Virus record (IMG/VR): IMGVR_UViG_3300033148_006706
Coordinates: 64,001-128,000 of that record
Source of the DNA: a virus
Length of the DNA: 64,000 nucleotides
Strand: one strand, 5' to 3'
Shown: positions 14,520 through 40,553 of the stretch, piece by piece
Numbering within the stretch: the first letter of the stretch is position 1
How the letters are laid out: each line of letters starts with the position of its first letter
Program-made: the position numbers and the translations under genes
Notes under the pieces: model-generated
Databases searched by the model: none
The model's input: only the letters and a program-made list of their open reading frames with translations
What the model was told of the DNA's origin: nothing

Positions 14520-14527
14520 ACTAATAT
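14520..14527 (+). promoter_or_regulatory. Putative late promoter motif ACTAATAT
   Basis: 3 nt before ATG 14531, no SD. Confidence 0.55.
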
Positions 14528-23978: not shown

Positions 23979-24434
23979 TTAAAAAGTCTCTATGACATCA
24001 ATTTCTCGTATCTTCTCCTCCAATTTCTCTCGTAATATATTCTTACTTTTGCGATAACTTGTATCTCTAGAATCGATATAATAAAGTAACTCATATATCT
24101 GCTCACCTGTCAGCTCGATAAATATATCATGTGGTTGCATCAACAATTTTAAAGTATCTCGGCTAACGAGTCTAAAATCATTTCTTTTACAAGGGCCTAG
24201 AAATCCTAAATCTCCATTTAGAATATCCACCCCCATAAACCCTTCTTCTTCTGAAATATTCAATGCCGGATTTTCAGTCCACACTACACGACCTATAATT
24301 TCTCCGTTTGTAACTATGTCTCCAGTTTTAAATTGAATATGAGGGGTCTTTTTATACTCTTCGATTTGTTTTCTTTTATATTCCTCTTCTAATTTATCTA
24401 TAGCATCTCTTAATTTTTGAAAAATTTCTTCCAT
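23979..24434 (-). CDS. Hypothetical protein
   Basis: AGGAG RBS; N-terminus duplicated at 24681-24761. Confidence 0.6.
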   Translation of the reverse strand: MEEIFQKLRDAIDKLEEEYKRKQIEEYKKTPHIQFKTGDIVTNGEIIGRVVWTENPALNISEEEGFMGVDILNGDLGFLGPCKRNDFRLVSRDTLKLLMQPHDIFIELTGEQIYELLYYIDSRDTSYRKSKNILREKLEEKIREIDVIETF

Positions 24435-24700
24435 ATTTTACTCCTGTTTTTAATTTTTATTTTTCTTTCTAATCGTTCTTGAAATCCGATAAGAGCTAAA
24501 GCAAATTCCAGCACAAAATATTCTCTTGCAATATCTGTGTTACTATAAAACCGTTCTCCTAATATCCGATTATTAATAGCTTCGGTGATTTGATTAATAT
24601 CCTGAATGAATGCGATTTCATTATCTTCTGACAATTCCTGTAAAAATGAAAAACCAACAGTAAACAATACCATTAGAATTTCACATATAATCTTTTGCAT
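24410..24700 (-). pseudogene. Truncated duplicate of 24784..25194
   Basis: Near-identical over the first ~77 codons, then jumps to downstream intergenic sequence. Confidence 0.65.
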
Positions 24701-24783
24701 ATTTATACTCCCCTTCTAATTTGTCTATAGCATCTCTTAATCTTTGAAAAATTTCTTCCATATTTTACTCCTGTTTTTAATTT

Positions 24784-25194
24784 TTATTCCCCTTCCCAAA
24801 CTTTCTCTTTTAATACCTCTTTAAGAGTTACATTATGCCAATTAATATTTTCTTTCCTATACTCATCGAAAAGGTATTCTACCATGTAGCCCAATATTCT
24901 TGATATTTTAATATCGTTTATCATTTCGATTTTATTTTCCTCACTTAAAAAACCGTAATTATCAATTCGTTCTTGAAATTCAATAAGAGCTAAAGCAAAT
25001 CCCAGCACAAAATATTCTCTTGCAATATCTGTGCTACTATAAAACCGTTCTCCTAATATCCGATTATTAATAGCTTCGGTGATTTGATTAATATCCTGAA
25101 TGAATGCGATTTCATCATCTTCTGACAATTCTTGTGAAAATGAAAAACCAACAATAAACAATACCATTAGAATTACACACATAATCTTTTTCAT
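24784..25194 (-). CDS. Hypothetical exported protein
   Basis: Signal-peptide-like MKKIMCVILMVLFIVGFSFS. Confidence 0.6.
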   Translation of the reverse strand: MKKIMCVILMVLFIVGFSFSQELSEDDEIAFIQDINQITEAINNRILGERFYSSTDIAREYFVLGFALALIEFQERIDNYGFLSEENKIEMINDIKISRILGYMVEYLFDEYRKENINWHNVTLKEVLKEKVWEGE

Positions 25195-26293: not shown

Positions 26294-26322
26294 AATATAT
26301 ACTTTTTTTAAAAAAATTTAAA
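26294..26322 (-). promoter_or_regulatory. Putative middle-type promoter TTTAAA-N17-TATATT
   Basis: Upstream of tmk. Confidence 0.5.
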
Positions 26323-27238
26323 CTAAGAAGTCAGGATATCCTCTGACAAAACATATTCTATCTAAACCAAATTCATCTATTATTTCCTGAAATCGCCTTC
26401 TAAAGGATACGCCACTTTTATACTTTGTGTATAGATCGCCTCCTCCGAAATCAAACCCTGATAAAAATATTTTGTCAAAACCTTCATACAATGCCTGTAA
26501 AATCCAAAAATACCCCGTATTACCTTTTCTATCATTATAGTAAAATACATTATTCCCTCTTGTACTATATAAACTAAACTTTTTACTTTTATAATTTTGT
26601 ATTTCTCTAAAAAGTTTCTTATCCAATACTCCAATACGAGTAAATGGCAAATCTTCTTTATATGCATGGTTACACCCCCATAGCTCGCCTTTCCAATTTT
26701 GTATAAAAGAAATATCAGGCTCCTCTGTCCTGGTTACCCCGTTACCTAAAATGAGCACCTTATTAGAGAAATCATTATATATGGTTTCCCCATACAATTT
26801 TACTTCTTCTTGTATAATTCCATCATAATCATTCTCTATAAAATATATATTATCACTAAAATTAAAATCATGAGATAGCTTCTGTAAATCCCGTATCCAG
26901 TTAGCTTTATTCTTCTTTTCGTGATTGGTTCTTCCTAGGTTAATTCCGCAAATATAGATATTCTTATATTCCTCGGTTAATGCATGATAAATGGCAAAAG
27001 AAAATAAATTGAGATTAGAACCATCCGTATTACATAATATATCAAAATTTTTACCAAATTCTCTTTTATACTCCTGCGCTTTAAACAAGCCAAGATTATC
27101 TACAAATATTTTACTAAATTGAATTGATTTATCTAGAAAACGAAAATTGAATCCCCATATTTCCTCTTTCCATTCTTTAACAAATTGTTTAGATTCTTTA
27201 CATAGATTATCGTTGCCGAGAATTAGGATACTTTTCAT
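26318..27238 (-). CDS. Tandem-domain Maf/GT42-like putative nonulosonate transferase (paralog 3)
   Basis: Two copies of ILG(N)...W.xN...IxxxG(F/I)(D/N)xG module; the first is degenerate. Confidence 0.5.
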   Translation of the reverse strand: MKSILILGNDNLCKESKQFVKEWKEEIWGFNFRFLDKSIQFSKIFVDNLGLFKAQEYKREFGKNFDILCNTDGSNLNLFSFAIYHALTEEYKNIYICGINLGRTNHEKKNKANWIRDLQKLSHDFNFSDNIYFIENDYDGIIQEEVKLYGETIYNDFSNKVLILGNGVTRTEEPDISFIQNWKGELWGCNHAYKEDLPFTRIGVLDKKLFREIQNYKSKKFSLYSTRGNNVFYYNDRKGNTGYFWILQALYEGFDKIFLSGFDFGGGDLYTKYKSGVSFRRRFQEIIDEFGLDRICFVRGYPDFLV

Positions 27239-28392
27239 ATTAAAAAATCGGGCTGTTTTCCAATGAATGACATATTCTTAATCCCAAATTCTTTACTAAC
27301 AGATAAAAACTGTTTTTTAAATAGCGCCCCATTTTGTTCACTGGAATTATAAATATTTGAATTATCAAAATCAAATCCTCCTAAAACAATCTCTTCAAAT
27401 TCTTCATAAATAGCCTGTAAAACAAGAAGAATTCCTGTACTCCAATTTCTCTGTTCTTTGAATAGAAAGACTCCCAATTGCTTATTTTCATATTCTTCAA
27501 ATCCATCAAACTTTAAAGTAAATATATCATAATCATAATTATTGTTAAGCTTATATTGAAGCGCCTTATCAACCATATATTTTTCTCTACAGCCAACTGC
27601 TTTAATAGTCCTTACATTTTCCACTTCTCTATATGCTTCATTACATACCCATATCCTATGTCGCCACTTATTTATAAATTTTTTAACTGATGGTTGTAGA
27701 CGAGATTTGCCATTCCCCAATATTAAAACTTTTTCATTTAATACAATATGAGCGTTCTTATTATTTACCTCAAGATGATTTATCCCCTTTAAATACAATT
27801 TTGCATAATAATCTGAAGGCTCATCACTCATAATAAAAGGCTTATGATCCTTCCCTATAAATATTACTTTATCCAGTCCAAGCTCATCTCGTATAAGTCG
27901 CCAATTCCTTACCCATTTCTCCTTATTCTTTATATGATGATTTTGTACATATATATCTTTTCCACCTAGATCAAATCCAATTACATAAATTTTATCATAT
28001 CCTTTTATTATAGCCCTTGCTACCAAGGTACTGCCAGAGTCTTTAATAAATAATCCAGGAATATCAATCATTTCTACACCCGGAAGCGTTTTAGCTTTTG
28101 GATTTTTTCCAAATATGCGATATTTACCCCCGTATCTTTTTTTATATTCTACAATTTCTTTTAATGCCGATATATCGCCAATTATTAAATCTAATCTTGG
28201 AAGCGAACCGTTATAGTATTCTAAATAAGCTGAATTACAGGCCCAAATTTCCCCGCTCCATTTTTGTATAAAATCCTGATGTTCTAATCTTGATATTCCA
28301 TTTCCAACAATAAGCACTTCTTTTATTTTTTTTATAGAATTCTGGTGGCTGTTATTTAAATTTTTATTTTCAATAATTGAAGGATTTTTCAT
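27235..28392 (-). CDS. Tandem-domain Maf/GT42-like putative nonulosonate transferase (paralog 2)
   Basis: VLIVGNGISR...WACN...SG...IYVIGFDLGG module present twice. Confidence 0.55.
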   Translation of the reverse strand: MKNPSIIENKNLNNSHQNSIKKIKEVLIVGNGISRLEHQDFIQKWSGEIWACNSAYLEYYNGSLPRLDLIIGDISALKEIVEYKKRYGGKYRIFGKNPKAKTLPGVEMIDIPGLFIKDSGSTLVARAIIKGYDKIYVIGFDLGGKDIYVQNHHIKNKEKWVRNWRLIRDELGLDKVIFIGKDHKPFIMSDEPSDYYAKLYLKGINHLEVNNKNAHIVLNEKVLILGNGKSRLQPSVKKFINKWRHRIWVCNEAYREVENVRTIKAVGCREKYMVDKALQYKLNNNYDYDIFTLKFDGFEEYENKQLGVFLFKEQRNWSTGILLVLQAIYEEFEEIVLGGFDFDNSNIYNSSEQNGALFKKQFLSVSKEFGIKNMSFIGKQPDFLI

Positions 28393-29501
28393 GCTATATA
28401 TTTTTCTCTATTTAAGAATTTTGGTTGCCCCTCAACAAATTTAATTTTATTTACATTAAACCAGCATCTTATTAAATTCATCTGTTTTCTATACGTTAGC
28501 CCTTCTACCGCCCTGTTCTTATAGATATGATCTCCCCCAAAATCAAAACCACTTAACCATATCATATCATACTCTTCATACAAAGCTTGTACTAAAAGAA
28601 GCATGCCCGTTTTAAAAGAATTAGTATAAAACAGCTTAACATCTTTGTTGACTTTTTCTATAGTATAAACATCATAATCAAGATTATGCTTCTCTTTAAA
28701 CTCAAGCATATCAAAAACTAAATGCGTAAACCTGGTTCCTACTCTATCAATTCTATTAAGATTATTATATTCTCTGTAATATGCATCATTACAAACCCAT
28801 ATTTCTTCTCTCCAATTTTTTATAAATCTTCTATTAAGAGAATTCTCTCTACTTCTTCCATTTCCTAAAATAAGCACGTTATTAGTTCTTTTAACATTCT
28901 CTTCTTGATAACTTTTTACAGGATAATTAACAAAAAAGTTTTCTTTTAAATGATCTTCTCCATTCATATATTTTCTAGCATAACTATTTATAGGCATCTC
29001 ACTTAATATGAAAGGCTTATGATCTATTCCCACAAAATGAATTCTTTCTAATCCAAACACCCTTGCTATTTTTCTCCAATTATCCACCCATTTACTTTTA
29101 TTTCTTCTTTCATGATTTTTTACATATATATCTTTTCCGCCCAGATCAAATCCTACTAAAAATATCTTACCATAATTTTCATATAATGCCTTTACAACAA
29201 GCGTTGACCCGGAATCTTTAATATATCTTTCTGGAATTTCAACTTTTTTTACTTCTGGTATACTTAATGCTTTTGTATTTTTACATAATAATTTATAATT
29301 TAATTTATATCTTTTTTTAGCTCTATAAGCTTCTTTTAATGCATCCTTATCTCCTATTAGAATATCTATTCTTGGAATTTTTTTATCAATCAGGTCTTTA
29401 AAAGCCCAATTGCAAGTCCAAATTTCTCCTTGCCATTTTTGTATAAAATCCTGATGTTCTAATCTTGATATTCCGTTACCTATAATAAGAACTTCTTTCA
29501 C
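28389..29501 (-). CDS. Tandem-domain Maf/GT42-like putative nonulosonate transferase (paralog 1)
   Basis: VLIIGNGISR...WTCN...SG...IFLVGFDLGG module present twice. Confidence 0.55.
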   Translation of the reverse strand: MKEVLIIGNGISRLEHQDFIQKWQGEIWTCNWAFKDLIDKKIPRIDILIGDKDALKEAYRAKKRYKLNYKLLCKNTKALSIPEVKKVEIPERYIKDSGSTLVVKALYENYGKIFLVGFDLGGKDIYVKNHERRNKSKWVDNWRKIARVFGLERIHFVGIDHKPFILSEMPINSYARKYMNGEDHLKENFFVNYPVKSYQEENVKRTNNVLILGNGRSRENSLNRRFIKNWREEIWVCNDAYYREYNNLNRIDRVGTRFTHLVFDMLEFKEKHNLDYDVYTIEKVNKDVKLFYTNSFKTGMLLLVQALYEEYDMIWLSGFDFGGDHIYKNRAVEGLTYRKQMNLIRCWFNVNKIKFVEGQPKFLNREKYIA

Positions 29502-30211
29502 TTAAATTTCTCCTTTAGCAATAATTCAACAATTCTAAAGTCCGTCTTTACATCTATTTCAAAATGGGTATAATAGTCCATTATAAAAAGCCCAACCGGA
29601 TCAGTTAACCTGTTTTTTGATTTAATAATATTACTAATCGTGTTTATATACATAGCCCCGTTTTCCATATAAATGTTATTTTTGTAAAAACGCTTCTCTT
29701 GCCTTAAAGGCCTAGATTTAAAATCATAATTCAAGGGAATAGCCCGAGATTTTTGATATTTATGGGAAAAACTTTCAGTCCATAAAAACCTGTGATTTAG
29801 ATCCGCTACTGATAACATTGAATTGTATGACCCCTTTTCATATTCATCAATCATTTTATTAACATCCTTATAATTAAGCAAAGGATTAGTAGCTTGGACA
29901 AGTATAAAAACGTCTTCATTATTTTCGTATCCTTTTCCCAAATACTCCAATATAGCATCCTCGGTTGTTGAATTATCTTGTGCATTTTTATGTTCCCTAT
30001 CATAAAAGATAATTTTATTAAATTGAAATTTTTTTATTATTAATTTATATTCTTCCGAATCGATTGCAACTATTATTTTATTAACTTTACTTTGCTGTAG
30101 AGCACTTAAAACCCAATATACTAGAGGTCTATGATTAATCTTTTTTATATTCTTATCTTTTATTCCTTTACTGCCACTTCTTATAGGAACAAACGATATT
30201 ATATTATTCAT
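29498..30211 (-). CDS. neuA: Acylneuraminate cytidylyltransferase (CMP-nonulosonate synthetase)
   Basis: VPIRSGSKGIKDKNIK, QATNPL, ENGAMY, EID motifs. Confidence 0.9.
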   Translation of the reverse strand: MNNIISFVPIRSGSKGIKDKNIKKINHRPLVYWVLSALQQSKVNKIIVAIDSEEYKLIIKKFQFNKIIFYDREHKNAQDNSTTEDAILEYLGKGYENNEDVFILVQATNPLLNYKDVNKMIDEYEKGSYNSMLSVADLNHRFLWTESFSHKYQKSRAIPLNYDFKSRPLRQEKRFYKNNIYMENGAMYINTISNIIKSKNRLTDPVGLFIMDYYTHFEIDVKTDFRIVELLLKEKFK

Positions 30212-30225
30212 ATAATATTAGTCAC

Positions 30226-30828
30226 TTAAAAAATATAATCAAATCTTTCTAAATCATCAGCATATAAAGTACTAACTATATCAACAGATTTTTTATCGTA
30301 ATATTCTTTATAATTTTTTCTTCGTGGCGCTCCGAAACTTTTATTAATCTGTTTAGGCTGTGGTATTCCTATTAAATCAAATATGTGGCGTATTTCTTTT
30401 TCAAAGTTTTCAAATCTTGCAATATAATCATAATTTTTACTACCTTTAGGAATTGCAAACCAACGTAACTGCGGTACATAGTGTATTTTATGTAAAGACT
30501 CTTTTAATTGAGTTTGAATAAAATCGTTAAAATCTTTTTTTATAGCACTAAATACTTTATTGTCATTTAAATCTTTTTGAGAAAGTGAACCTCTGTTTGC
30601 CCGTGACCAATACGAAACAAGTCTATCAAAAGGATTTCTTACAATAGTAAACGTAAAGTATTTATCCCATTTTTTGGGGTACGCTTGTATGTATCGAATT
30701 GGGAAGGCATGTCTCCCACCTACTTCTTTTGGATTTATGACCATATTTTCATCAAATAATGCATTTATCGTATGCCCTCCAGTACGAGGAATACTTACAA
30801 AAATCGTCTTGTACTTATCACTTACCAT
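30226..30828 (-). CDS. Sulfotransferase family 2 (carbohydrate sulfotransferase-like)
   Basis: 5'-PSB FVSIPRTGGHT, 3'-PB FTIVRNPFDRLVSYW, HYVPQ, YDYIARFEN; start reassigned to ATG 30828. Confidence 0.8.
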   Translation of the reverse strand: MVSDKYKTIFVSIPRTGGHTINALFDENMVINPKEVGGRHAFPIRYIQAYPKKWDKYFTFTIVRNPFDRLVSYWSRANRGSLSQKDLNDNKVFSAIKKDFNDFIQTQLKESLHKIHYVPQLRWFAIPKGSKNYDYIARFENFEKEIRHIFDLIGIPQPKQINKSFGAPRRKNYKEYYDKKSVDIVSTLYADDLERFDYIF

Positions 30829-30832
30829 ATTA

Positions 30833-31033
30833 TTATACTCTCGTTGTTTGTAATATGAAGAACCCATGCCCATTAGGCCAGCTTTTATAATTATCTTTAT
30901 ATCTACACCCTTGTACACCCCCCCAAGAAATATCATCCCAAAAGATAAATATCTTATCCACATAATCAGTTATCGAATTTATAGACTGCTGGACAAAATC
31001 TTCCCCATAAAGACATCTATATATTGCTATCAA
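30833..31033 (-). pseudogene. N-terminal fragment of a GT-A (GT2-like) glycosyltransferase
   Basis: IAIYRCLYGEDFVQQSINSITDYVDKIFIFWDD resembles the first beta-alpha-beta of GT2, but stops at 66 aa. Confidence 0.45.
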
Positions 31034-31721
31034 AATTCTTAATAAACTCCTTTAATTTTTCAGCATCCCGTATTCTTTCCCATTCTTTCTCTCTATATAA
31101 TGCTTTTACTTTATCTCGTTTTCTTCTCGCCCTTTGATCTCTATATGTGTCATCCAACTCTGACTTACCCACACTGAAATGTAAATGCTCTATATACAGA
31201 TCAGGTATATATACAAGCCTATCTATTCTTTTTGCTAAATCAGTAAGCCAAGTATCGTTATAATCTGCACTAAAGTAGGGAGGTACAAAATATCCTACTG
31301 TTTCTATCCAATTTTTATGAATAAAGCCATGGGTTCCTAACTCCCCACTATCTACAATTCCATCTCTACCGTATACGAATAAAATTTTATCAGGATATTT
31401 TTCAAATTCGCTTTTAACAATTCTATCCCATTCTTTTGTTTTATAAACAAGATCATCTCCTGCATGATGATAAATAGGACCTGTTGCTTTTCTGTAGCAT
31501 TCATTCCACATATTACTAAGTACAATCCTTTCACCAATAATGAATTTTATATTATAATTTTTTTGCAATTCTAGTGCTTTATCTCTTGATCTTTTATCGT
31601 CATTATCAATATAAAAAACAATTTCAACACTATTAGAATCCTCTGCTTTAGAAAATGCTGAATTGCATAATCTTTCCATTCCTGACGGTCTGTTTCTTGT
31701 TGGCACTAGTAAACTAATCAA
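31017..31721 (-). CDS. Glycosyltransferase family 2
   Basis: ISLLVPTRNRP, YIDNDD, GDD motif, DTWL, EHLH. Confidence 0.85.
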   Translation of the reverse strand: MISLLVPTRNRPSGMERLCNSAFSKAEDSNSVEIVFYIDNDDKRSRDKALELQKNYNIKFIIGERIVLSNMWNECYRKATGPIYHHAGDDLVYKTKEWDRIVKSEFEKYPDKILFVYGRDGIVDSGELGTHGFIHKNWIETVGYFVPPYFSADYNDTWLTDLAKRIDRLVYIPDLYIEHLHFSVGKSELDDTYRDQRARRKRDKVKALYREKEWERIRDAEKLKEFIKNFDSNI

Positions 31722-31725
31722 CTTT

Positions 31726-32301
31726 TTACTCTCCTATTCTAATTATTTCCACTCCGGGCTGATCTTTTATATATCTCCAGGGGTCAAGAATACAAGAGCC
31801 TTTTGGAAAAGAATATGTTCCAAATTCTTTATGTCTTGTTCCAATAAAATAGATAGCTGGCTCTTGTAATGGAGGGGGACTTTTATCAATATACGGATCA
31901 TACATTTGAGCATCTATATCTTTTTCCCTTAGTATATTCTTTAAAAGGATAGCGGGGCTACCAACTTCTAAATTAGTCTGTTCTTTAAACGCTTTTCCTA
32001 AAATAATTACGGGCAAATCCAACTGCTCTTTCTTTTCTTTTACTAATTCTGCCAACCATTCAGTTTGTTTTTCTCTGCAAAGCATAATATTTTCAAACCA
32101 ATCGTACGAAAGATTAAGTTTTCTAGAAAGCCATGAAAGAGCTATATTATCACGGGGATGACAATTATGCGAAACAATATTAGATTTTTTCTCTATCCAA
32201 AATAAATCATCATTATTCTGATGATTTGGAAATAACTCTAAATTATACACATCCCCTTCATAATATAATGTTTCAATTTTTTTAATATTCTTTTTTTTCA
32301 T
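31726..32301 (-). CDS. Split-intein C-part (46 aa) fused to C-terminal extein of UDP-glucose/GDP-mannose dehydrogenase
   Basis: Block F GDVYNLEL, block G VSHN|C, then CHPRD...ILGKAFK...YDPY of the dehydrogenase; own AGGAG RBS. Confidence 0.9.
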   Translation of the reverse strand: MKKKNIKKIETLYYEGDVYNLELFPNHQNNDDLFWIEKKSNIVSHNCHPRDNIALSWLSRKLNLSYDWFENIMLCREKQTEWLAELVKEKKEQLDLPVIILGKAFKEQTNLEVGSPAILLKNILREKDIDAQMYDPYIDKSPPPLQEPAIYFIGTRHKEFGTYSFPKGSCILDPWRYIKDQPGVEIIRIGE

Positions 32302-32331
32302 ATTTTAACACTCCTATTAGCTAATCTTCTT

Positions 32332-33459
32332 TTAATTTCTATTATCATAATATAATTTATCCGTTTGTTTTACTTTATCTGCTCGAATAATTTCCATTTT
32401 ACCATTCCTAAATACAGGAATTAAATGATCCTCAGTACAAATAAATTCTTCATCCTGAACAGAGAATTTATACAATTTGCCTTTATATTTTCTTTTAGTT
32501 ACGTCTTTTATTAATTTTTCTTCTTTTTCAGAACAATCGCTATTAATAGATTCTATAAAAAATTTTTTATTTTCTGATGAGTGGAAAATCTCATAGAAAT
32601 CCCCTATAGTAAATATTTCATTATTAACTTTTATTTTTGAATCATATAAAACACATCCTCCACCATCTCCCATTCCGCCCCTCATATATTTATTTGATAT
32701 AATTCTATCAGTTGCAAGTGAAAGAGCCCTAGTTACTTCATCTACATTTGTATTTGGAGTCTTATGACATATCTCCATAACGGTATTCATCATAACTATT
32801 TTTGTCGATATCGCAGTGTTATAAACCACTTTTATAAGCTCTGCATTTTCTATTGTTGTTTCAAATACAGGACGATCATGTAAAGTTTTATAAAAAAGTT
32901 TTACTGTTTCTTTCGCTGCAAAACTATCAGTTCCTAATAATACAAACTCGGGGTTCATAAAATCGGGTATTGTGGTTCCCATAGCTATAAAGAAAGGATT
33001 ATAACATAGATCTATATAAGGAGACATAAACGGACGAATTTCTCTTTCAATAGTCCCTGGTAACACTGTTGAAATAATAACCACAATTTTATGTCTTTTT
33101 ATTTTATTTAATTCCTCTGAAAGTTGTATTACTGATTCTTTTAAGTAACTATAGTCAAAATCTTTTCTTTCATCCGGTAATCTTGTAATTCCTTCATATT
33201 TTTCAGCATGAGGCGTTTGTACAGCAATAAAAATTATATCAGAACGCCCCGCTACATCCTTAATTGGTAATATCTTGATATTACTATTATCGAGTAGCTC
33301 TTGAGCCCCCTCTTCTCTATATGGAATTTTTTTATCTTTTATAATTTCTTTAACTTTCTCGGAAGGATCATATCCCACTACTGAATGGCGCCCAAATTTT
33401 TCTATTGCTAAAGCGCAAGGTAGCCCCAACTTTCCAAGACCTAAAAATCCTATATTCAT
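32332..33459 (-). CDS. ugd: UDP-glucose/GDP-mannose dehydrogenase N-terminal extein (268 aa) fused to split-intein N-part (107 aa)
   Basis: GLGKLG, AVQTP, STVLPGT, YNPFF, AELIKV, GMGDGGG then block A CVLYDSKI and block B CTEDH. Confidence 0.9.
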   Translation of the reverse strand: MNIGFLGLGKLGLPCALAIEKFGRHSVVGYDPSEKVKEIIKDKKIPYREEGAQELLDNSNIKILPIKDVAGRSDIIFIAVQTPHAEKYEGITRLPDERKDFDYSYLKESVIQLSEELNKIKRHKIVVIISTVLPGTIEREIRPFMSPYIDLCYNPFFIAMGTTIPDFMNPEFVLLGTDSFAAKETVKLFYKTLHDRPVFETTIENAELIKVVYNTAISTKIVMMNTVMEICHKTPNTNVDEVTRALSLATDRIISNKYMRGGMGDGGGCVLYDSKIKVNNEIFTIGDFYEIFHSSENKKFFIESINSDCSEKEEKLIKDVTKRKYKGKLYKFSVQDEEFICTEDHLIPVFRNGKMEIIRADKVKQTDKLYYDNRN

Positions 33460-34457
33460 TTGAAAACTCCTTCGTATATTCTTAAATAATCATTCAATAT
33501 TTTTTCATTATTCCAATGCTTCTCCATAAATTCTCTTGAATCCCGCTGAAGTTTCTTTAACAAACTTCTATTTTCATTTAACTCTGTAATTGTAGTAGCT
33601 AAAGAGTGCTTATCTGCCAGCACCCAGGGCAATTCATACAATTCGCACTTTAAGAACTCGGTAAGGTATTGAATCATCCAGTCTTTTAAGTTACACATAA
33701 CTACTTTCCCTTGTGATAGCCCCTCCAATGATGATAAATGATAGCTGCCAGTATAAATATCGTCAATATGAATATCACCTGAGGCTCGTCTTTTTAAACA
33801 CTCATCAAATCGTTCTCCGTAGATAATATCTTTTTCTATAATACCTTTACTTTCTAATTCATTTAATATAGCAGAAACCTCGCTATAACTTTTATAAGCC
33901 CATGTGGATTTCCTCTTTTTTTTAAGTTTTTCCAACGGCTCCTTATTAGATGGGCTATAAGTAACTTTTATTCTTTCATTATTAACTTCCTTGTATTGAA
34001 GCAAAGGGTCGCATATATCAACAACATTACGCACTGGATAAAAATCATCTTTAAGTAAAGACTTCAATCTTACCGCTTGATACTGTGCAATACAAGCTAT
34101 TCTGTCTATTCTTACCCATTTCTTAATAACATTAAACATTTCATTAATTACTTTCTCAGGCTCACCGTGCATCTGGTACACAAACGGTTTATTAATATTG
34201 CTTAGCATTTGCCATCCCTTGCTATTTTTATGTAAAGGAGGCTGATTATGAATGTGTATAATATCTGCCCAGTTAAGATATTCTTTAAATTGTTTTAAAT
34301 CTTCTTTACCTTTACCCCATACAACATCTGGTATTATTTTCATACTACTTAATCGAGATTGAATGCACTTTGATTCTATCCCATTTTTATTTAAAAAATT
34401 ACTTAACCTAACCGGCGCTCCTGCTAATGGTGATCTACAAAGATGCAATATTTTCAT
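33456..34457 (-). CDS. GT-B fold glycosyltransferase (GT4-like)
   Basis: MKILHL, ADIIHIH, MHG, DIHIDD...LEGLSQGKVV. Confidence 0.65.
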   Translation of the reverse strand: MKILHLCRSPLAGAPVRLSNFLNKNGIESKCIQSRLSSMKIIPDVVWGKGKEDLKQFKEYLNWADIIHIHNQPPLHKNSKGWQMLSNINKPFVYQMHGEPEKVINEMFNVIKKWVRIDRIACIAQYQAVRLKSLLKDDFYPVRNVVDICDPLLQYKEVNNERIKVTYSPSNKEPLEKLKKKRKSTWAYKSYSEVSAILNELESKGIIEKDIIYGERFDECLKRRASGDIHIDDIYTGSYHLSSLEGLSQGKVVMCNLKDWMIQYLTEFLKCELYELPWVLADKHSLATTITELNENRSLLKKLQRDSREFMEKHWNNEKILNDYLRIYEGVFK

Positions 34458-35214
34458 CTAGTAGAAACTCCTCATCGTTAAACAATTTAAAGACAACATC
34501 ATTATAATATTTGTCTTTCATTAAATGTAAGTTTTTCCAACTATTGAGATAATCCTTTCTTGAGAACGATAGTTTTCCAACTTTCTTTTTATGCTCGATA
34601 CTCTTAGCGTATTGCGCACTCTCTTCAGCACTTTCAATATAACTCCCATCAAATCCAACATAATATATTTCTTTATATCCCATATACGCTGTAAGAAAAT
34701 AAAACGCTCCCACTACCGAACCTTGTGCCTGTACAATTATATTATCTTTATATTCGGTATTGAAGCTCCCCTTCCGGATATCATTATCATCAATATTATT
34801 TGATTTAAAAAAATATATGTTCTTCAGATTCTTTATCTTTTCATAAAGTGACATAATTATTTCTATATCTAATGGGCTATCATTTCTTTTTTCCTTTTTC
34901 TCAATATGAAATGAAAAGATAGCATGCGGTAGTAATACATATTGAGCTAAATGTAATTTATCTACATTTCTTCTAAGTCCTTGATAATGAAAATTAACAG
35001 CATACTGAACACTCTTACTAGCTGTAAAGATAGATATAGCATCAGTAAGTGTACAAATATCATACTGCCTTTGCCCTTCCAGTTTCTTAATATTCAGCGT
35101 ATCTATAGAAGGGCCGGAGCCAATAAGTAAAGCCTTGTTATTTCGAGGCTTCCTCGGTACTTTTTCTAAAGTAGGCAGAAAAGGCTCTCTTAAGTCATCG
35201 ACTGTTGTTATCAT
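34435..35214 (-). CDS. Maf/GT42-like putative nonulosonate transferase
   Basis: ALLIGSGPSI and MGYKEIYYVGFD motifs of the CstII/Maf fold. Confidence 0.6.
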   Translation of the reverse strand: MITTVDDLREPFLPTLEKVPRKPRNNKALLIGSGPSIDTLNIKKLEGQRQYDICTLTDAISIFTASKSVQYAVNFHYQGLRRNVDKLHLAQYVLLPHAIFSFHIEKKEKRNDSPLDIEIIMSLYEKIKNLKNIYFFKSNNIDDNDIRKGSFNTEYKDNIIVQAQGSVVGAFYFLTAYMGYKEIYYVGFDGSYIESAEESAQYAKSIEHKKKVGKLSFSRKDYLNSWKNLHLMKDKYYNDVVFKLFNDEEFLLDENIASL

Positions 35215-35951
35215 TTCTTCTTACCTGCTCTTCTTAATCGTGCCTCATAATTATAATAATCGGGGTGTTCTATGATTTTTTTTACAATATTATAAATAAA
35301 ATCATGAGTTTTTATCTTTCCTTTTTGTAGTAATTGCCACATATACTTAGCATTAGAATATTGATCATGTGGATCAACACGACCCCGATTTTTTATGTTT
35401 GCTTTATCACGAATTTTCTTAGGCAGATAGTCTGGAAAATATTCTCTATAATCGTTGGGAATAAATAAATCAGGTTTCATATAATAAAAGTCTATTCCAG
35501 TAAACCAAAGTTCTTTTGGATTATATTGTAAAAAATGTTCCATGATAATAGGGCCGTACAGTACGCCTTTTATTTTTTTGCTAAGTTTTGCTATTGTATC
35601 AGCAAGCGTAAATGTAGGAATGGTTTTAGAGTATTTATCAATAAGATTCCTCTGATTTGTTTTCATTCCTAATAATTTCACCCCATATTTATCTCTCCAT
35701 GTTTTTAAATACCCCGCCGGTTGCATTTCACGATTAAATTGTACATTCATACAAAGTATATCGCATCTCTTACCATAATTCTCCACATAAGCAACTTTAT
35801 CTAAAAGAAAAATAGCGCCGTTTGTTCTTATTACGCAATCGAAACTGTCTATTTCTTTACCGAGATATTTCCCTTGTAATATCGGAGACGGGCCAACAAA
35901 TATTACTCGTTTCTCTTCTACCTGCTGCTGTAATAACTTTTCTACGTTCAA
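35211..35951 (-). CDS. GT29-like sialyltransferase
   Basis: Sialylmotif-L-like RVIFVGPSPILQGKYLGKEIDSFDCVIRTN...YGKRCD; S-like G...FTGIDFY; late His (DPHD). Confidence 0.7.
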   Translation of the reverse strand: MNVEKLLQQQVEEKRVIFVGPSPILQGKYLGKEIDSFDCVIRTNGAIFLLDKVAYVENYGKRCDILCMNVQFNREMQPAGYLKTWRDKYGVKLLGMKTNQRNLIDKYSKTIPTFTLADTIAKLSKKIKGVLYGPIIMEHFLQYNPKELWFTGIDFYYMKPDLFIPNDYREYFPDYLPKKIRDKANIKNRGRVDPHDQYSNAKYMWQLLQKGKIKTHDFIYNIVKKIIEHPDYYNYEARLRRAGKKK

Positions 35952-36499
35952 TATTTCTTCCTTATAACACAGGATGTATCTTTAAATATTTCATCTGGAA
36001 ATTTAAGTACTTCATTAAAAGCCTTTCTGACTCCTGGATGATGCTTACTATTACTATAATCATGTAGCGCCAGGAAGCCATTTATTTTTAATTTTGGCCA
36101 CCATAAGCCAATATCTTCCTTTACATTAAGAAAATTATGATTAGCATCGATATAAATAAACATTAAAGAGTTATTTTGAAACATTTTACAAGCTTCTTTA
36201 CTTGTTGTTTTTATTTTATAAATATTAGAATACTTTTTACAAAGTTCATCAAATTGCTTTTCTACTATTTCCATAGGATATTTATATGAAGAAGCGTCAT
36301 TTTTATCATATCCGTTTTTCCAAGCATCAATCGCTATAACCTGATCAAAATTTTTTGCAAATATTTCTGTACTATCTCCTACGTAAGAGCCTATTTCTAC
36401 AACTTTGGCAATAGTAGGATCTATTCGCTTTACATAAGCACATAAATCTTGAAGTCCCGATTTTGCATTTCTAGCTTTTCGTATACTAATTTTTTCCAT
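35948..36499 (-). CDS. Class I SAM-dependent methyltransferase (Methyltransf_24-like)
   Basis: VEIGSYVGDS, IDAW, FIYIDANH, LHDY...GVRKA; start at TAATG overlap. Confidence 0.85.
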   Translation of the reverse strand: MEKISIRKARNAKSGLQDLCAYVKRIDPTIAKVVEIGSYVGDSTEIFAKNFDQVIAIDAWKNGYDKNDASSYKYPMEIVEKQFDELCKKYSNIYKIKTTSKEACKMFQNNSLMFIYIDANHNFLNVKEDIGLWWPKLKINGFLALHDYSNSKHHPGVRKAFNEVLKFPDEIFKDTSCVIRKKY

Positions 36500-37278
36500 T
36501 ATATCTCCATACGATAATAATACATCCAAAGTTCTTCTAATTCATCATACCCTTTATTTAATTTATCCCTAGGGGATTTATCCCAAGGCTTTTGACTTAC
36601 AAAGTGAAGTAGTCTTACTTTTTCGTTAGTTATTCTATACAATAAATCTCTATTTCTACTAAAGAAAATTTTATGTTTCTTACCTTTCCACATTCTCTTC
36701 TCACAATTATATTCTTTCGGAAGAATGTGAATCATCTTTTTAAAGTATTTATTAATAGCTTTTTGATCCGGCATTGAAAATCCCCGCCTTGAAAACTGTA
36801 AAATATTTTTATACAGCTTAAAGTCTAGATAGGGTTTATTTACAACAATGACGCCAGTATTTATTCCGCTTCGTAGATTATCGCTTCCTGATCCATAAGC
36901 CTGCACTCCCGCCAATCTTGCTCCACATCGAAAAAGTGGATTTAAATCTCCTAATGCAATAGTATCCATATCGATAAAAACAACTCTATCACAATCAGTA
37001 TAAGAAAAAATATCAAGTTTGTAATACGTATTTTTTAAACAATCGTCTGTTATTGACATATTAATGTGTTTATAATTTTCAAATCTTGGTTTTACAAACT
37101 CTACATTATCATGTAATAAAGAAGCCATATAACCTTTATTTGAATTAGAAAGCCCCATATCAATAAATCGCCATTTATAATTTAATATTTTGGGACTATT
37201 TTTTACCACCGATTTATAAAAAGCAATAAAGCCGGGCATAAACGCATTATCTATCATTGACAGTAGAATAATTTTCAC
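36499..37278 (-). CDS. Glycosyltransferase family 8
   Basis: YYKL, FIDMD (DxD), INTGV, DQ, EYN, LHF..KPW. Confidence 0.9.
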   Translation of the reverse strand: MKIILLSMIDNAFMPGFIAFYKSVVKNSPKILNYKWRFIDMGLSNSNKGYMASLLHDNVEFVKPRFENYKHINMSITDDCLKNTYYKLDIFSYTDCDRVVFIDMDTIALGDLNPLFRCGARLAGVQAYGSGSDNLRSGINTGVIVVNKPYLDFKLYKNILQFSRRGFSMPDQKAINKYFKKMIHILPKEYNCEKRMWKGKKHKIFFSRNRDLLYRITNEKVRLLHFVSQKPWDKSPRDKLNKGYDELEELWMYYYRMEI

Positions 37279-37280
37279 TC

Positions 37281-37532
37281 TTATATCTCTTCGTATGTCC
37301 TATTAAATATATCGATTTTACAGGGATAGAACTCTCCATTTACTCCTTGTATTACATAATTTCCTTTTTCACATTTCATGTCCCCCTCTAACGTTTTTAT
37401 AACTAAGGCATTACTTGACTCCACAGATAAATGACAATGAGATTTACAAAGTTTTTTTATCTCATCCAAATTATTTCCATCCCATCTTATTGCTTTCACA
37501 ATGATTGGCTTCTTTCTGAATTCTTTCCACAC
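37281..37532 (-). CDS. Conserved phage hypothetical protein
   Basis: FRKKP..V.A..W...TLEGDM...G...GEFYPCK.DIF..TYE family pattern. Confidence 0.7.
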   Translation of the reverse strand: MWKEFRKKPIIVKAIRWDGNNLDEIKKLCKSHCHLSVESSNALVIKTLEGDMKCEKGNYVIQGVNGEFYPCKIDIFNRTYEEI

Positions 37533-37533
37533 T

Positions 37534-38388
37534 TTAATTACCTCCGATCCTTAAATTCTTTTTCTTCTCTTCTTCTCCTGGATATAATACTCTTGGCCCG
37601 TATCCTTTGGATAACCCCCTCTCAATATCTCTTACTCCTTTAACAAGCTCAAATAAACCATTAGGTTCAACTGAAGCTGCTTGATCACTACCCCACAGAT
37701 TATGATTCAACGTTATATGCTTTTCTATCCATGTAACTCCATACGCAAGCACTGCAAATGCATCTTTAATTCCGTAATAATGAGAGCTATAACCGATTTC
37801 TTTTCGAGGATACTTTTCTTTCAACCATTTTACATACTGTAAATATAAATCATCAATAGAAGTAGGATACACACTATTTGTATGCATAATAACATGAGGA
37901 TCTAATATATTAACAGCTTTTTCTATTTCCTCCTCAGTACTCATGCCCGTCGACATTATCCTATAATCAAATAAATCTCTACATAATTCAAGAAGTGCGT
38001 CGTTGGTAATAAGAGCAGATGGAATCTTTACAATATCCACAAATTTCTTCATGAAATAAGCGCTGTCTAAATCCCAAACCGATGCAAACCAGCCTATTCC
38101 ACAACTAAAACAATAATTATCAATTTCAGCATAATTGTCTTCATTAAATTCAATATCTTTTTTATATTGCAAATATGTAATAGGCTTTTGTCTCCAAGGT
38201 ACAATTTTTTCTTTATTTTTCTTATCTTCAGGAACGCAGATATCCGGATTTCTTTTCTGGAACTTTACATAATTACAATCTGCAGCACTAGCAATTGTAA
38301 TAAGTTTTCTAGCACTTTTAATAAACTCTAACTTATCATTTCCAAAGAATGCATTTAAGCCAATCTCAGCTATTATCTTAACTTCCAT
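37534..38388 (-). CDS. neuB: N-acetylneuraminate (nonulosonate) synthase, short form
   Basis: IIAEIG, VKFQKR, KIPSA, STGMS, S.YP, GYSSH, IEKHITL, GSDQ. Confidence 0.9.
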   Translation of the reverse strand: MEVKIIAEIGLNAFFGNDKLEFIKSARKLITIASAADCNYVKFQKRNPDICVPEDKKNKEKIVPWRQKPITYLQYKKDIEFNEDNYAEIDNYCFSCGIGWFASVWDLDSAYFMKKFVDIVKIPSALITNDALLELCRDLFDYRIMSTGMSTEEEIEKAVNILDPHVIMHTNSVYPTSIDDLYLQYVKWLKEKYPRKEIGYSSHYYGIKDAFAVLAYGVTWIEKHITLNHNLWGSDQAASVEPNGLFELVKGVRDIERGLSKGYGPRVLYPGEEEKKKNLRIGGN

Positions 38389-38431
38389 ATTATACTACTC
38401 CAAAGATAGAATAAAAAAATTTGAGTCTATT

Positions 38432-38439
38432 ATATTAGT
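38432..38439 (-). promoter_or_regulatory. Putative late promoter motif ACTAATAT heading the glycan island
   Basis: Intergenic, upstream of neuB; second copy at 30215-30222 before neuA. Confidence 0.55.
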
Positions 38440-38448
38440 ATTTCTCTT

Positions 38449-39243
38449 CTACTGGCTTAAAATTATTTCGCTTGTAGATGTGAGATAATCGATTGGATTA
38501 ACAAGTTTCCCGTTTTTCCTAATTTCGTAATGAAGATGAATCCCATACGATTTTCCCGTATTTCCCATTAACCCAATTACTTGACCTCGTTTTACCTTTT
38601 GGCCTTCTCTTACATAAGTTCTACTCATGTGTGCATATAAAGTAGTATATCCGCCATTATGTTTAATCTTTACCATCTTTCCATATACAGGGTGCCAAAT
38701 CCAAACATCTGTAACTATTCCATCAGCGGTAGCTATTATCTTAGTCCTATCACTTGCAGTTATATCTATACCTTTATGAAAAAAGATCTCTTTTGTGAAA
38801 GGATAAATCCTATTACCAAATCCCGATGTAATTCTAACCTCCGGACTATAACATACAGGAAACACATTGGGAATATTATGAGTATACTCTTTCCTTTTAT
38901 CAAAGAAATTTTGAACATTATTTAAGAAGCTATCAAAGCTTCCTGTTCCATTTTTAATTGCTGTCACTAAATTTTCTATAGAGGTATTTTGTACAGTATT
39001 ATCAATACCGCCAATATTTATATATTGTTCCTTATTATAAAGAGAAACTACAATATCTTTAAGCGTTTCTCTATACTTAATTTGATTACTCTCCAAGTTG
39101 TTTATTTTCTTTTCTTTTTTCTCAAGTTCCTGTTTATATGCGGTTTCTTCTTTTCTTAATTTATTTTGATACCAAATATTTAAATCGATAATAAAAAATA
39201 TAAAAAAAAGAAAAAGAAATCTCCAAAATAATTTTTCATTCAT
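38449..39243 (-). CDS. Membrane-anchored M23 peptidase
   Basis: N-terminal TM + coiled coil; ITSGFG, HKGID, YAH, HLHYE. Confidence 0.9.
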   Translation of the reverse strand: MNEKLFWRFLFLFFIFFIIDLNIWYQNKLRKEETAYKQELEKKEKKINNLESNQIKYRETLKDIVVSLYNKEQYINIGGIDNTVQNTSIENLVTAIKNGTGSFDSFLNNVQNFFDKRKEYTHNIPNVFPVCYSPEVRITSGFGNRIYPFTKEIFFHKGIDITASDRTKIIATADGIVTDVWIWHPVYGKMVKIKHNGGYTTLYAHMSRTYVREGQKVKRGQVIGLMGNTGKSYGIHLHYEIRKNGKLVNPIDYLTSTSEIILSQ

Positions 39244-39256
39244 TTTAAAACCTCTC

Positions 39257-39700
39257 CTACAGGCGATTTAAAACTTTCACAACCTTTACAAAGTATCTGT
39301 TTCCTTGATGTACTTTGTAATTATTAGTAACTGCTTTAGGACCAATATTATAAGCCATAATGGCTTTTTCCCATGAATTAAAGTAAGTATATAGCCACTT
39401 AAGATATTTTAAACCCACCTCTATATTATGATAAGGGTTCCAGGGATTAAATTTCTTTTCTCTATTCCAGAATTTCTTTTCAAAATAACTTATATAAACA
39501 GGATTTAGTTGAAAGATACCGATATCCCCGGATACCCCTCTGATATTCCGCCAACCTGATTCTACTTCAATTATTGCAATTGCTATATCAGAGGGGATAT
39601 CATATTCTTTACATTTATCTATTGTAAAGTCTTTTAAAGGGGAACTAAAAGAATATAAATGAGTAAAAAAGTACAATAATATAACTACAAAATTCTTCAT
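39257..39700 (-). CDS. Lytic transglycosylase (SLT domain)
   Basis: AIIEVES, GIFQLN, NIEVG, MAYNIG; N-terminal signal. Confidence 0.9.
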   Translation of the reverse strand: MKNFVVILLYFFTHLYSFSSPLKDFTIDKCKEYDIPSDIAIAIIEVESGWRNIRGVSGDIGIFQLNPVYISYFEKKFWNREKKFNPWNPYHNIEVGLKYLKWLYTYFNSWEKAIMAYNIGPKAVTNNYKVHQGNRYFVKVVKVLNRL

Positions 39701-39709
39701 TTTCCTATA

Positions 39710-40486
39710 TCACATATAAGCATGGTATGCTATCTTCTTATATAAATCCTCACTACATATTTCACAAAATCCAACATCTTTGATGAGGAACTTAGAAAGA
39801 TCTCTAACAAATTTTTTGTCTTTGATACTCATATACCAGTTAACATAAGAAACAGGTTTTTCTTTTTTATTAGAGAATTCGTTTCGATATTTATCATATT
39901 TAGAAATTGTTGATTGAGATAATCTCATCTTTATAAAAGTTTCATACTTCTTATATTTCTTATTATTGTGAAAAAATTGCAATAATAGATTATTTACAAT
40001 CTTTCTTTTATCGTATTCGATCTTTTTATATGTCGCTAGATGATTATCAATGTAATCTTCAAAATTTAAATTATTTTCCTCATCGATCACAGAATCTTTA
40101 TTTAGACACGATAATCTTAACTTTCTATATATTCCCTGTTCATAATCTAATTTTACAAATGAATGGTTTTTCATCTCTGTTTTGAAAAACTTCTTAGCCT
40201 CATTCATTAACTTCATTTTAAAGATATTTGTTATATCAAAATTATCATCTATTTTATTAACATCAATATATTTAACAACTTCATTTAATATAAGATAAGC
40301 TTCCATTTTAAAATCTTGGAAATCGTCATAATTTTTTGTCCATTTCAGTAATTTCCCGCTTACCTTATTAACTAAAGGTTGATACTTTTGCCATAGCTTT
40401 TCCATATTATATTTGACATTCTTATTATTCTTAATTTCTTTTATTAATTGTTTATCGCTTTTAATTTCTTCTTTTATCTTTCTCAT
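39710..40486 (-). CDS. Sigma-factor-like protein (region 2)
   Basis: EKLWQKYQPLV...DDFQDFKMEAYLIL pattern. Confidence 0.55.
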   Translation of the reverse strand: MRKIKEEIKSDKQLIKEIKNNKNVKYNMEKLWQKYQPLVNKVSGKLLKWTKNYDDFQDFKMEAYLILNEVVKYIDVNKIDDNFDITNIFKMKLMNEAKKFFKTEMKNHSFVKLDYEQGIYRKLRLSCLNKDSVIDEENNLNFEDYIDNHLATYKKIEYDKRKIVNNLLLQFFHNNKKYKKYETFIKMRLSQSTISKYDKYRNEFSNKKEKPVSYVNWYMSIKDKKFVRDLSKFLIKDVGFCEICSEDLYKKIAYHAYM

Positions 40487-40553
40487 TTTCTTCTCCTTAA
40501 AATTATATTAGTCATAAGTTATAAGCTCCTAAAAAAATGATTTGCATAACTTT

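Follow-up and report, generated by a model that had tools for sequence, protein, structure and literature searches.

A phage gene island predicted to make a nonulosonate-containing acidic glycan, with virion protein as the most likely acceptor

Introduction

Two bacterial systems, the lipo-oligosaccharide (LOS) locus of Campylobacter jejuni and the Maf-dependent O-glycosylation of flagellin, are among the closest known systems to the gene island described here, which lies on the minus strand of a 64,000-nucleotide (nt) stretch of phage DNA (the window; bases 64003-128002 of the complete 139,843-bp virus record IMGVR_UViG_3300033148_006706, which has direct terminal repeats). The C. jejuni locus comprises neuB1, neuC1, neuA1 and CstI/CstII/CstIII, and like the island it joins NeuB and NeuA to transferases of the CstII fold that are soluble or peripheral, with no dedicated flippase. 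The island differs in being phage-borne, in having no NeuC, and in carrying tandem two-domain transferases of a separate family found almost only in viruses; it also adds a GT29-like enzyme, a sulfotransferase, a methyltransferase and an intein-split dehydrogenase, and its acceptor is probably a protein rather than lipid A-core. Maf enzymes, known from Campylobacter, Helicobacter, Aeromonas and Magnetospirillum (Maf structure 5mu5), put pseudaminic or legionaminic acid directly on flagellin in the cytoplasm. With them the phage shares an MptE-like fold and the presence of several paralogues, whereas it has no flagellin and no pathway to pseudaminic (Pse) or legionaminic (Leg) acid precursors, its domains measure ~180 amino acids against ~630 for Maf, and their sequence similarity to Maf is undetectable without structure.

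Phage particles are commonly taken to consist of naked protein, and to our knowledge phage-encoded glycosylation of the virion has been shown in a few mycobacteriophages only, with ordinary sugars. For two of these, Che8 and Rita, we know of ordinary nucleotide-sugar transferases and of no nonulosonate pathway. Their phage-encoded glycosyltransferases modify the phages' own capsid proteins and give the particle a glycan coat (Freeman et al. 2023, as cited in PMC11256854); as that account has it, the modification was demonstrated experimentally, whereas the case made here is drawn from genomes. Megavirinae encode the synthesis of rare bacterial-type sugars together with the transferases for their fibril glycans (PMC10117803), but these giant viruses have eukaryotic hosts and use other sugars, while the island is that of a tailed phage whose nonulosonate route is minimal, at two steps. 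The cyanophages S-SCSM2R, S-SCSM1 and P-SSM2 carry many glycosyltransferases along with KdsA/KdsB, for which the authors favour host-surface or DNA roles (PMC12801897); these sets make 3-deoxy-D-manno-octulosonate (KDO), not a nine-carbon sugar, and no sialyltransferase-fold array was reported there. Our literature searches returned no phage-encoded nonulosonate pathway, and no sialyltransferase-fold enzyme tied to phage heads or acting on virions.

Here we propose, with a probability of roughly 55%, that the product of the island is an acidic glycan with nonulosonate in it, assembled in the cytoplasm, and that the acceptor is most likely a virion protein. If particles do carry a sialic-acid-like, sulfated coat, phage stability and the sticking of phages to particles and mucus would have to be rethought, as would the ways in which hosts, grazers and immune systems recognise them and the environmental sources of nonulosonic acids.

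Results

Organisation of the island

The island consists of 16 genes, all on the minus strand, packed into positions 26318-38388 of the window (to 38440 with the motif before neuB). The junctions between them are 4-nt overlaps or gaps of no more than 53 nt, and all 16 genes are intact and translationally coupled. Each gene class named in an initial annotation, made from the letters alone, was found at its expected place and on the minus strand by Pfam, ESM Atlas or structural comparison. That annotation had also noted the lack of transmembrane segments and of a flippase or polymerase, and a hydrophobicity scan agreed: the maximum for any 19-residue stretch of an island protein is 1.59 on the Kyte-Doolittle scale, short of the cut-off of 1.7, and nowhere in the genome does a protein exceed three such hydrophobic segments. 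Judged from its predicted proteins, the island is soluble and carrier-free in character. Among 50,697 phage records, no match was obtained by megablast with the island or by tblastn with one of its neighbouring genes.

NeuB, NeuA and the donor sugar

The two genes that would supply the donor sugar are:

37534-38388, minus strand: NeuB-type nonulosonate synthase, 284 amino acids, TIM barrel only (Pfam NeuB, 1e-55)
29498-30211 (29498-30222 with its motif), minus strand: NeuA-type CMP-nonulosonate synthetase (Pfam CTP_transf_3, 1.7e-22)

NeuB matched PF03102 over profile positions 1-238 of 241, with 189.3 bits against a cut-off of 22.1, and its closest PDB match was 6ncs, a sialic acid synthetase of 290 amino acids (6e-21). 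When NeuB was aligned with Neisseria NeuB (1xuu), both metal-binding His residues were kept (SDH/SSH and RH/KH columns), as were the phosphoenolpyruvate-site positions KxQ, KIxS, STG and HxxNxYP; the residue roles are those established for 1xuz. The C-terminal SAF/antifreeze-like domain is absent, the protein ending at 284 amino acids much as 6ncs does at 290. In nonulosonate synthases this domain contacts the N-acetyl group of the substrate. The NCBIfam matches (NeuB_NnaB 164.7 bits, PseI 91.7) both fell under their equivalog cut-offs. The protein is a NeuB-family barrel whose substrate is not readable from its sequence. For NeuA, PF02348 gave 80.8 bits (cut-off 22.6), and the best PDB matches were the CMP-Neu5Ac synthetases 1qwj (1e-20) and PpNeuA (5e-19), with KdsB at just 4e-5; its best NCBIfam match, PseF, reached 66 bits, and no equivalog cut-off was attained. 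The chemistry assumed in the initial annotation, NeuB followed by NeuA, thus has profile matches, PDB matches and conserved NeuB residues behind it.

A search of the genome for a NeuC-type epimerase and a DegT aminotransferase found neither, and there are no Pse or Leg precursor genes. NeuB would condense phosphoenolpyruvate with a hexose or hexosamine supplied by the host, and NeuA would activate the product to CMP-nonulosonate.

NeuB proteins of this short type occur in 42 viral contigs, giant-virus bins included, mostly without other island genes within 10 kb. Relatives without the SAF domain, 45-51% identical, were seen on contigs binned as giant-virus genomes (L018, L021, L023, L024, L027, L031, L033, L034, L038, L042, L044 and L045), which extends the clade of this NeuB across bacterial and eukaryotic viruses.

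Such a distribution, and the missing upstream enzymes, would suit a role in metabolic support only, in which NeuB, NeuA and the dehydrogenase top up the host's pools of acidic sugars while the transferases are diverse or decayed and serve no dedicated phage acceptor. We regard this as improbable, because the 16 genes are intact and coupled, because eight sialyltransferase-fold domains (see below) are a large investment for mere supply, and because the core order is kept in related phages. Specifically, three large contigs of the same phage lineage (L049, L050 and L051; 90-155 kb) carry NeuB, the small protein, GT8, the methyltransferase, the GT29-like and MptE-like enzymes, the sulfotransferase, NeuA and a tandem transferase in this order, from NeuB to the tandem enzyme, at 30-67% identity; the middle varies, and the number of transferase genes is one or two. 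The cassette of GT8, methyltransferase and GT29 was kept in L019, L047, L049, L050 (twice) and L051; L019 and L047 are unrelated contigs, and there it again accompanies NeuB.

A family of sialyltransferase-fold enzymes nearly confined to viruses

Five island genes encode enzymes of the sialyltransferase fold, with eight such domains between them:

28389-29501, minus strand: tandem of two CstII/Maf-fold domains
27235-28392, minus strand: tandem of two CstII/Maf-fold domains, paralogue of the former
26318-27238, minus strand: tandem of two CstII/Maf-fold domains, third paralogue
35211-35951, minus strand: GT29-like sialyltransferase (Pfam Glyco_transf_29, 33.7 bits against a cut-off of 23)
34435-35214, minus strand: MptE/Maf-like single-domain transferase, 259 amino acids (Pfam MptE-like, 2.6e-6, under the cut-off)

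The three tandem paralogues are 30-46% identical to one another and each has an internal repeat. No Pfam family matched them at E <= 0.01, PHROGs gave nothing for the island transferases, and single-sequence searches against PDB sequences returned noise only, so that family profiles and a structural model were required. The AlphaFold2 model, built from an alignment of 30 sequences (mean predicted local distance difference test, pLDDT, 89.8), shows two similar domains. It matched CstI (Z-score 12.2), CstII (11.1) and Maf (10.8), as well as a Pasteurella sialyltransferase (10.7) and GT29 enzymes (about 9), with the next unrelated fold at 5.6; both halves matched CstI/CstII on their own (Z 10.5-12.2; root-mean-square deviation 3.3-3.8 over 145-164 residues). 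Searched against PDB sequences, the family profile (A1) found CstI/CstII at E values of 3.6e-4 to 2e-3, over ~90 residues only.

In the family, a GNGxSR nucleotide-loop motif is near-invariant. H156, Y173, Y177 and H183 are conserved in the alignment of a second profile (A2) and are candidate counterparts of the catalytic His188, Tyr156 and Tyr162 of CstII. Of the family motifs, none is missing from the N-terminal domains of 28389 and 27235, while the C-terminal domains have retained GNGxSR and GFDFGG but lost others. The N-terminal domain of 26318 has neither GNGxSR nor DSGST and looks degenerate. Some relatives are fused to a GT29 domain. Taken with the profile matches and the gene context, the modelled fold suggests that the tandem enzymes are transferases.

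The match of the GT29-like enzyme spans positions 55-168 of PF00777, the N-terminal half only, including sialylmotif L. Over this motif its family profile (A4) matched ST6Gal1 (4mps; 3.2e-5), ST8Sia3 and ST3Gal1; the enzyme has 18 homologues, many with PF00777, and the family alignment contains an invariant His195, a possible equivalent of the catalytic His. The MptE-like gene scored 27.8 bits against PF01973 (cut-off 34.6) and has one homologue among 5.8 billion proteins; its nearest ESM Atlas clusters are MptE-like and mostly viral. The initial annotation had counted a GT29-like and four Maf/GT42-like transferases, the same five genes. The latter assignment stands at the level of fold but not at that of the Maf/MptE-like family (PF01973), the cut-off being missed by the single-domain gene and the paralogues lacking a match. 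Going by the modelled fold and the Atlas neighbours, the MptE-like gene and the paralogues probably have only a superfamily in common with Maf/MptE.

The tandem family is small, with 188 representatives at E <= 0.001 among 1.84 billion. It was found in 31 viral contigs, against two matches in 185,579 species genomes, both on phage-like contigs of metagenome-assembled genomes, and is nearly confined to viral contigs.

Linkage to phage head genes

In 13 distinct contigs of a ~40-kb myovirus type, the major head protein gene is immediately followed by a single-domain homologue of 250-310 amino acids (L053, L055, L056, L059, L062 (= L080), L063, L065, L066, L067, L069, L071, L072 and L081). The distance between the two genes is at most 45 nt, or 247 nt in L062. 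From the portal gene the order runs through protease, decoration protein, head protein and transferase to sheath and tube. Since the adjoining head proteins are strongly diverged (29-67% identical or beyond BLAST detection, and of two PHROG families) and the adjacency is nevertheless kept, it must be old and maintained. With its head protein, the head-linked enzyme also makes a simple two-gene system.

When the profile of the head-linked enzymes was run against the phage described here, the N-terminal domains of 28389 and 27235 scored ~200-210 bits and their C-terminal domains ~58-60 bits, with the two domains of 26318 at 45 and 65. None of the small head-linked phages has NeuB or NeuA within 10 kb of the transferase, so they would use a donor made by the host.

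In four other contigs (L052, L061, L070 and L074) PHROGs gave no head protein identity for the gene upstream of the transferase; in L074 the neighbours are tail-fibre-like. The transferase of L070 is the C-terminal part of a 649-residue open reading frame (9131-11080) whose N-terminal 290 residues have no PHROG match, and which could be a fusion with a structural protein. The head-linked transferases (L071 10004-10831, L053 10001-10864 and L056 9209-9985) end in tails of 70-100 residues rich in Lys, Glu and Ala, with repeats such as EAKAK, whereas the tandem enzymes have no such tails; these might dock the transferase on the procapsid.

A motif shared with structural genes

The initial annotation had found the same motif before neuB and neuA as before baseplate, fibre and endolysin genes. 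Its fuller consensus is TACTAATATAAT and its core 8-mer ACTAATAT. In the window ACTAATAT was found 9 times against 7.5 expected, a count not above chance; it is the placement that stands out. Of the 33 copies in the genome, 20 stand on the coding strand and upstream of a start codon by 70 nt or less. The 280 8-mers of equal composition average 1.05 (standard deviation 2.0), and the next-best of them were shifted versions of the motif site. The shared motif was thereby confirmed. It precedes tail sheath, tail tube, tail fibre and baseplate-wedge-like genes and the SLT/M23 cassette described below. In the minus-strand block it occurs just four times, before that cassette, neuB, neuA and the gene of a 326-amino-acid membrane protein. 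The neuB copy (TACTAATATAAT, 38429-38440) lies 43 nt from the ATG, and the neuA copy (ACTAATAT, 30215-30222) 3 nt before it. Both L049 and L051 keep the motif ~40-55 nt upstream of neuB, and L049 has it upstream of neuA as well, even though the proteins of these phages are just 41-64% identical to those described here (44-64% across the island). These positions suggest that it is the phage's late (structural) promoter. A scan for sigma-70 promoters gave 109 sites against 106 expected and was uninformative.

Five genes, at genome positions 8250, 54012, 78522, 87969 and 94224 (the last three at 14520, 23967 and 30222 of the window), lack a Shine-Dalgarno sequence, and in them the motif ends 3 nt short of the ATG. 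This points to transcripts without a leader, or to a motif that also serves as translation start context.

The acceptor of the glycan

The route we propose would begin with CMP-nonulosonate. The dehydrogenase, after trans-splicing of its intein, would yield UDP-uronic acid, the GT8, GT2 and GT-B enzymes would lay down hexose units, and the three tandem CstII/Maf-fold enzymes, with the GT29-like and MptE-like ones, would add nonulosonate residues. Decoration of the glycan by the methyltransferase and the sulfotransferase would use S-adenosylmethionine (SAM) and 3'-phosphoadenosine-5'-phosphosulfate (PAPS) from the host. A chemistry of nonulosonate, hexose, uronic acid, sulfate and methyl groups would follow from the well-known functions of these families.

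The head-gene linkage of the transferase family, its restriction to viruses and the motif shared with structural genes support, without proving, the placing of this glycan on the virion. A fuller version, in which the capsid or tail bears a complex heteroglycan with nonulosonate, uronic, sulfate and O-methyl groups, assembled wholly in the cytoplasm without a lipid carrier by a virus-specific family of sialyltransferase-fold enzymes whose tandem two-site members extend oligo-nonulosonate chains, is put forward tentatively and is on balance doubtful; if true, the particle would carry an anionic coat like that of mucins or glycosaminoglycans.

Several observations weigh against a virion acceptor. 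The island lies inside the minus-strand block of replication and nucleotide metabolism, beside thymidylate kinase and distant from the tail genes. The motif is the single indication of late timing, and the neuA copy may serve downstream genes rather than neuA. The fold of the tandem enzymes is common to pyrophosphokinases as well (MptE HPPK Z 10.9, thiamin pyrophosphokinase 9-10). The major head protein of this phage was found neither with a hidden Markov model of the small-phage head proteins nor with Pfam Gp23 or Phage_capsid; a candidate of 479 amino acids had no close relatives in the viral-contig scan, and an AlphaFold2 model of it built from three sequences had a pLDDT of 38.3, too low for use. 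Among the proteins scanned none stood out as a Ser/Thr-rich acceptor, with at most 38% Ser/Thr in any 40-residue window. Moreover, the set of GT8, GT2, GT-B, CstII-fold, NeuB and NeuA proteins resembles the LOS loci of Campylobacter, Neisseria and Haemophilus.

This last point bears on late remodelling of a host glycoconjugate, in which the LOS core, or else a protein of the flagellum, pilus or S-layer, would be sialylated, sulfated and methylated at the cytoplasmic face and exported by the host machinery. This would mask the phage receptor and so block superinfection or keep progeny off cell debris. LOS loci have soluble or peripheral transferases and do without a flippase gene, since host MsbA flips the product, and both CstII and such GT8 enzymes as LgtC work on LOS from the cytoplasmic side; the missing flippase is therefore compatible with host surface conversion, contrary to the initial annotation, which had set that aside in favour of virion protein. 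The match to the CstI/CstII and Maf fold fits either target, the exported SLT and M23 wall hydrolases beside the island, under the same motif, are a cell-envelope context, and the comparable cyanophage sets of glycosyltransferase and KDO genes were read as host-surface modification (PMC12801897). We nevertheless consider host remodelling unlikely, if a serious contender, since cellular genomes have next to no members of the transferase family, and since in 13 phage lineages it is fixed behind the head protein gene rather than at typical moron sites. A motif of structural genes would also leave little time for surface turnover before lysis, and the phage has no lipid-carrier, flippase or ligase gene, although the host could supply these. 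Of the earlier claim, the virion-protein target stands as the favoured one, on the strength of the 13-contig linkage, the virus-restricted family and the structural motif.

The position of the island also bears on a third target, DNA. The long plus-strand block carries the tail sheath, tube, fibre and baseplate genes, and the minus-strand block (window 16470-59600) DNA polymerase A, an SNF2 helicase, primase, clamp loader and thymidylate kinase. DNA glycosylation has a precedent in the glucosyl-hydroxymethylcytosine of T4, and longer DNA glycans were reported in 2024; DNA is reportedly a frequent target of phage glycosyltransferases (Pyle et al. 2024, cited in PMC12619734). Sugars placed on modified bases would serve evasion of restriction, and both the neighbourhood of thymidylate kinase and the frequency with which DNA is a target would agree with this. 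Hypermodification is nonetheless highly improbable here, as the genome has no gene of the thymidylate-synthase/hydroxymethylase family (PF00303), related enzymes are linked to head genes, and we know of no CMP-nonulosonate-dependent DNA transferase. The initial annotation had likewise disfavoured it. The sole PHROG label of 'thymidylate synthase' (phrog_17568), on a gene of 447 amino acids at genome 50477-51820 (L004 10477-11820), belongs to a dual-specificity phosphatase by Pfam (CDKN3/DSPc); this gene follows a Trp-solenoid gene family.

One further fact of position favours the virion reading: in a complete relative of this phage (G003, contig L051) the island lies between the DNA polymerase gene and homologues of the motif-preceded late-block genes, on the same strand and 1.2 kb upstream of the latter.

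A split intein in the sugar dehydrogenase

The nucleotide-sugar dehydrogenase had been annotated as a single gene. The family was right, all three domains being present, but they are divided between two genes by an intein:

31726-33459, minus strand: UDP-sugar 6-dehydrogenase in two genes, with a split intein directly before the catalytic Cys
32332-33459, minus strand: N-extein and N-terminal intein half (Pfam UDPG_MGDP_dh_N and central domains, with a weak Intein_splicing match)
31726-32301, minus strand: C-terminal intein half and C-extein (C-terminal dehydrogenase domain, Pfam)

Between the two genes are stops and a separate ribosome-binding site. The profile phrog_9148 was matched over positions 1-291 by the first gene and 261-356 by the second, and the splice junctions read ...GGG / CVLYD... 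and ...SHN / CHPRD, the Cys of the latter being the catalytic one. Since the halves lie on two genes that part at this residue, an active enzyme is predicted to require trans-splicing. In a related contig (L076) the N- and C-terminal parts of a dehydrogenase are ~700 nt apart (1132-2277 and 2995-3525). The island thus adds a natural split intein in a sugar dehydrogenase, beside a virus-restricted branch of the sialyltransferase fold and GT29-like enzymes of prokaryotic viruses.

Other island enzymes and neighbouring genes

The remaining features of the island are:

37281-37532, minus strand: conserved small phage protein, 83 amino acids, function not assigned (phrog_419, 6e-28)
36499-37278, minus strand: GT8 retaining glycosyltransferase (Pfam Glyco_transf_8, 8.8e-13)
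35948-36529, minus strand: SAM-dependent methyltransferase (Pfam Methyltransf_24, 4.9e-13)
33456-34457, minus strand: GT-B (GT1/GT4-like) glycosyltransferase, 333 amino acids (ESM Atlas features, 0.99)
31017-31721, minus strand: GT2 glycosyltransferase (Pfam Glycos_transf_2, 27.7 bits against a cut-off of 23.3)
30226-30963, minus strand: carbohydrate-type sulfotransferase (Pfam Sulfotransfer_2, 5.8e-18, residues 46-243)

The GT-B gene had no Pfam match, and its structure resembled GT1-type Atlas clusters with TM-scores of 0.78-0.84. The methyltransferase, 48-59% identical in the relatives, is the best conserved island gene after neuB and the 83-residue gene. The sulfotransferase probably starts at an internal Met, because the long start has no ribosome-binding site; L049 has two copies of its homologue, and an adenosine 5'-phosphosulfate (APS) kinase gene is absent from the genome. 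The small protein had a weaker match to a family labelled 'nucleotide pyrophosphohydrolase'. In L049 it is 67% identical and holds the same position between neuB and GT8, with the flanking enzymes less conserved.

Directly upstream of neuB lies the cassette already mentioned:

38429-40512, minus strand: upstream cassette, with a late-type motif at 40505-40512, three genes and then the neuB motif
39710-40486, minus strand: gene of 258 amino acids, function not assigned, first of the cassette
39257-39700, minus strand: SLT transglycosylase (Pfam) with an N-terminal hydrophobic segment
38449-39243, minus strand: M23 peptidase (Pfam) with an N-terminal hydrophobic segment

A terminator-like hairpin (40580-40564) stands directly upstream of the cassette, and its two hydrolases may be endolysins of the signal-anchor-release type. 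On the other side of the island, two adjacent small genes of 96 and 136 amino acids (window 24410-25194) are paralogues with N-terminal hydrophobic segments, and they have an identical 34-nt stretch in common, at 24559 and 25053.

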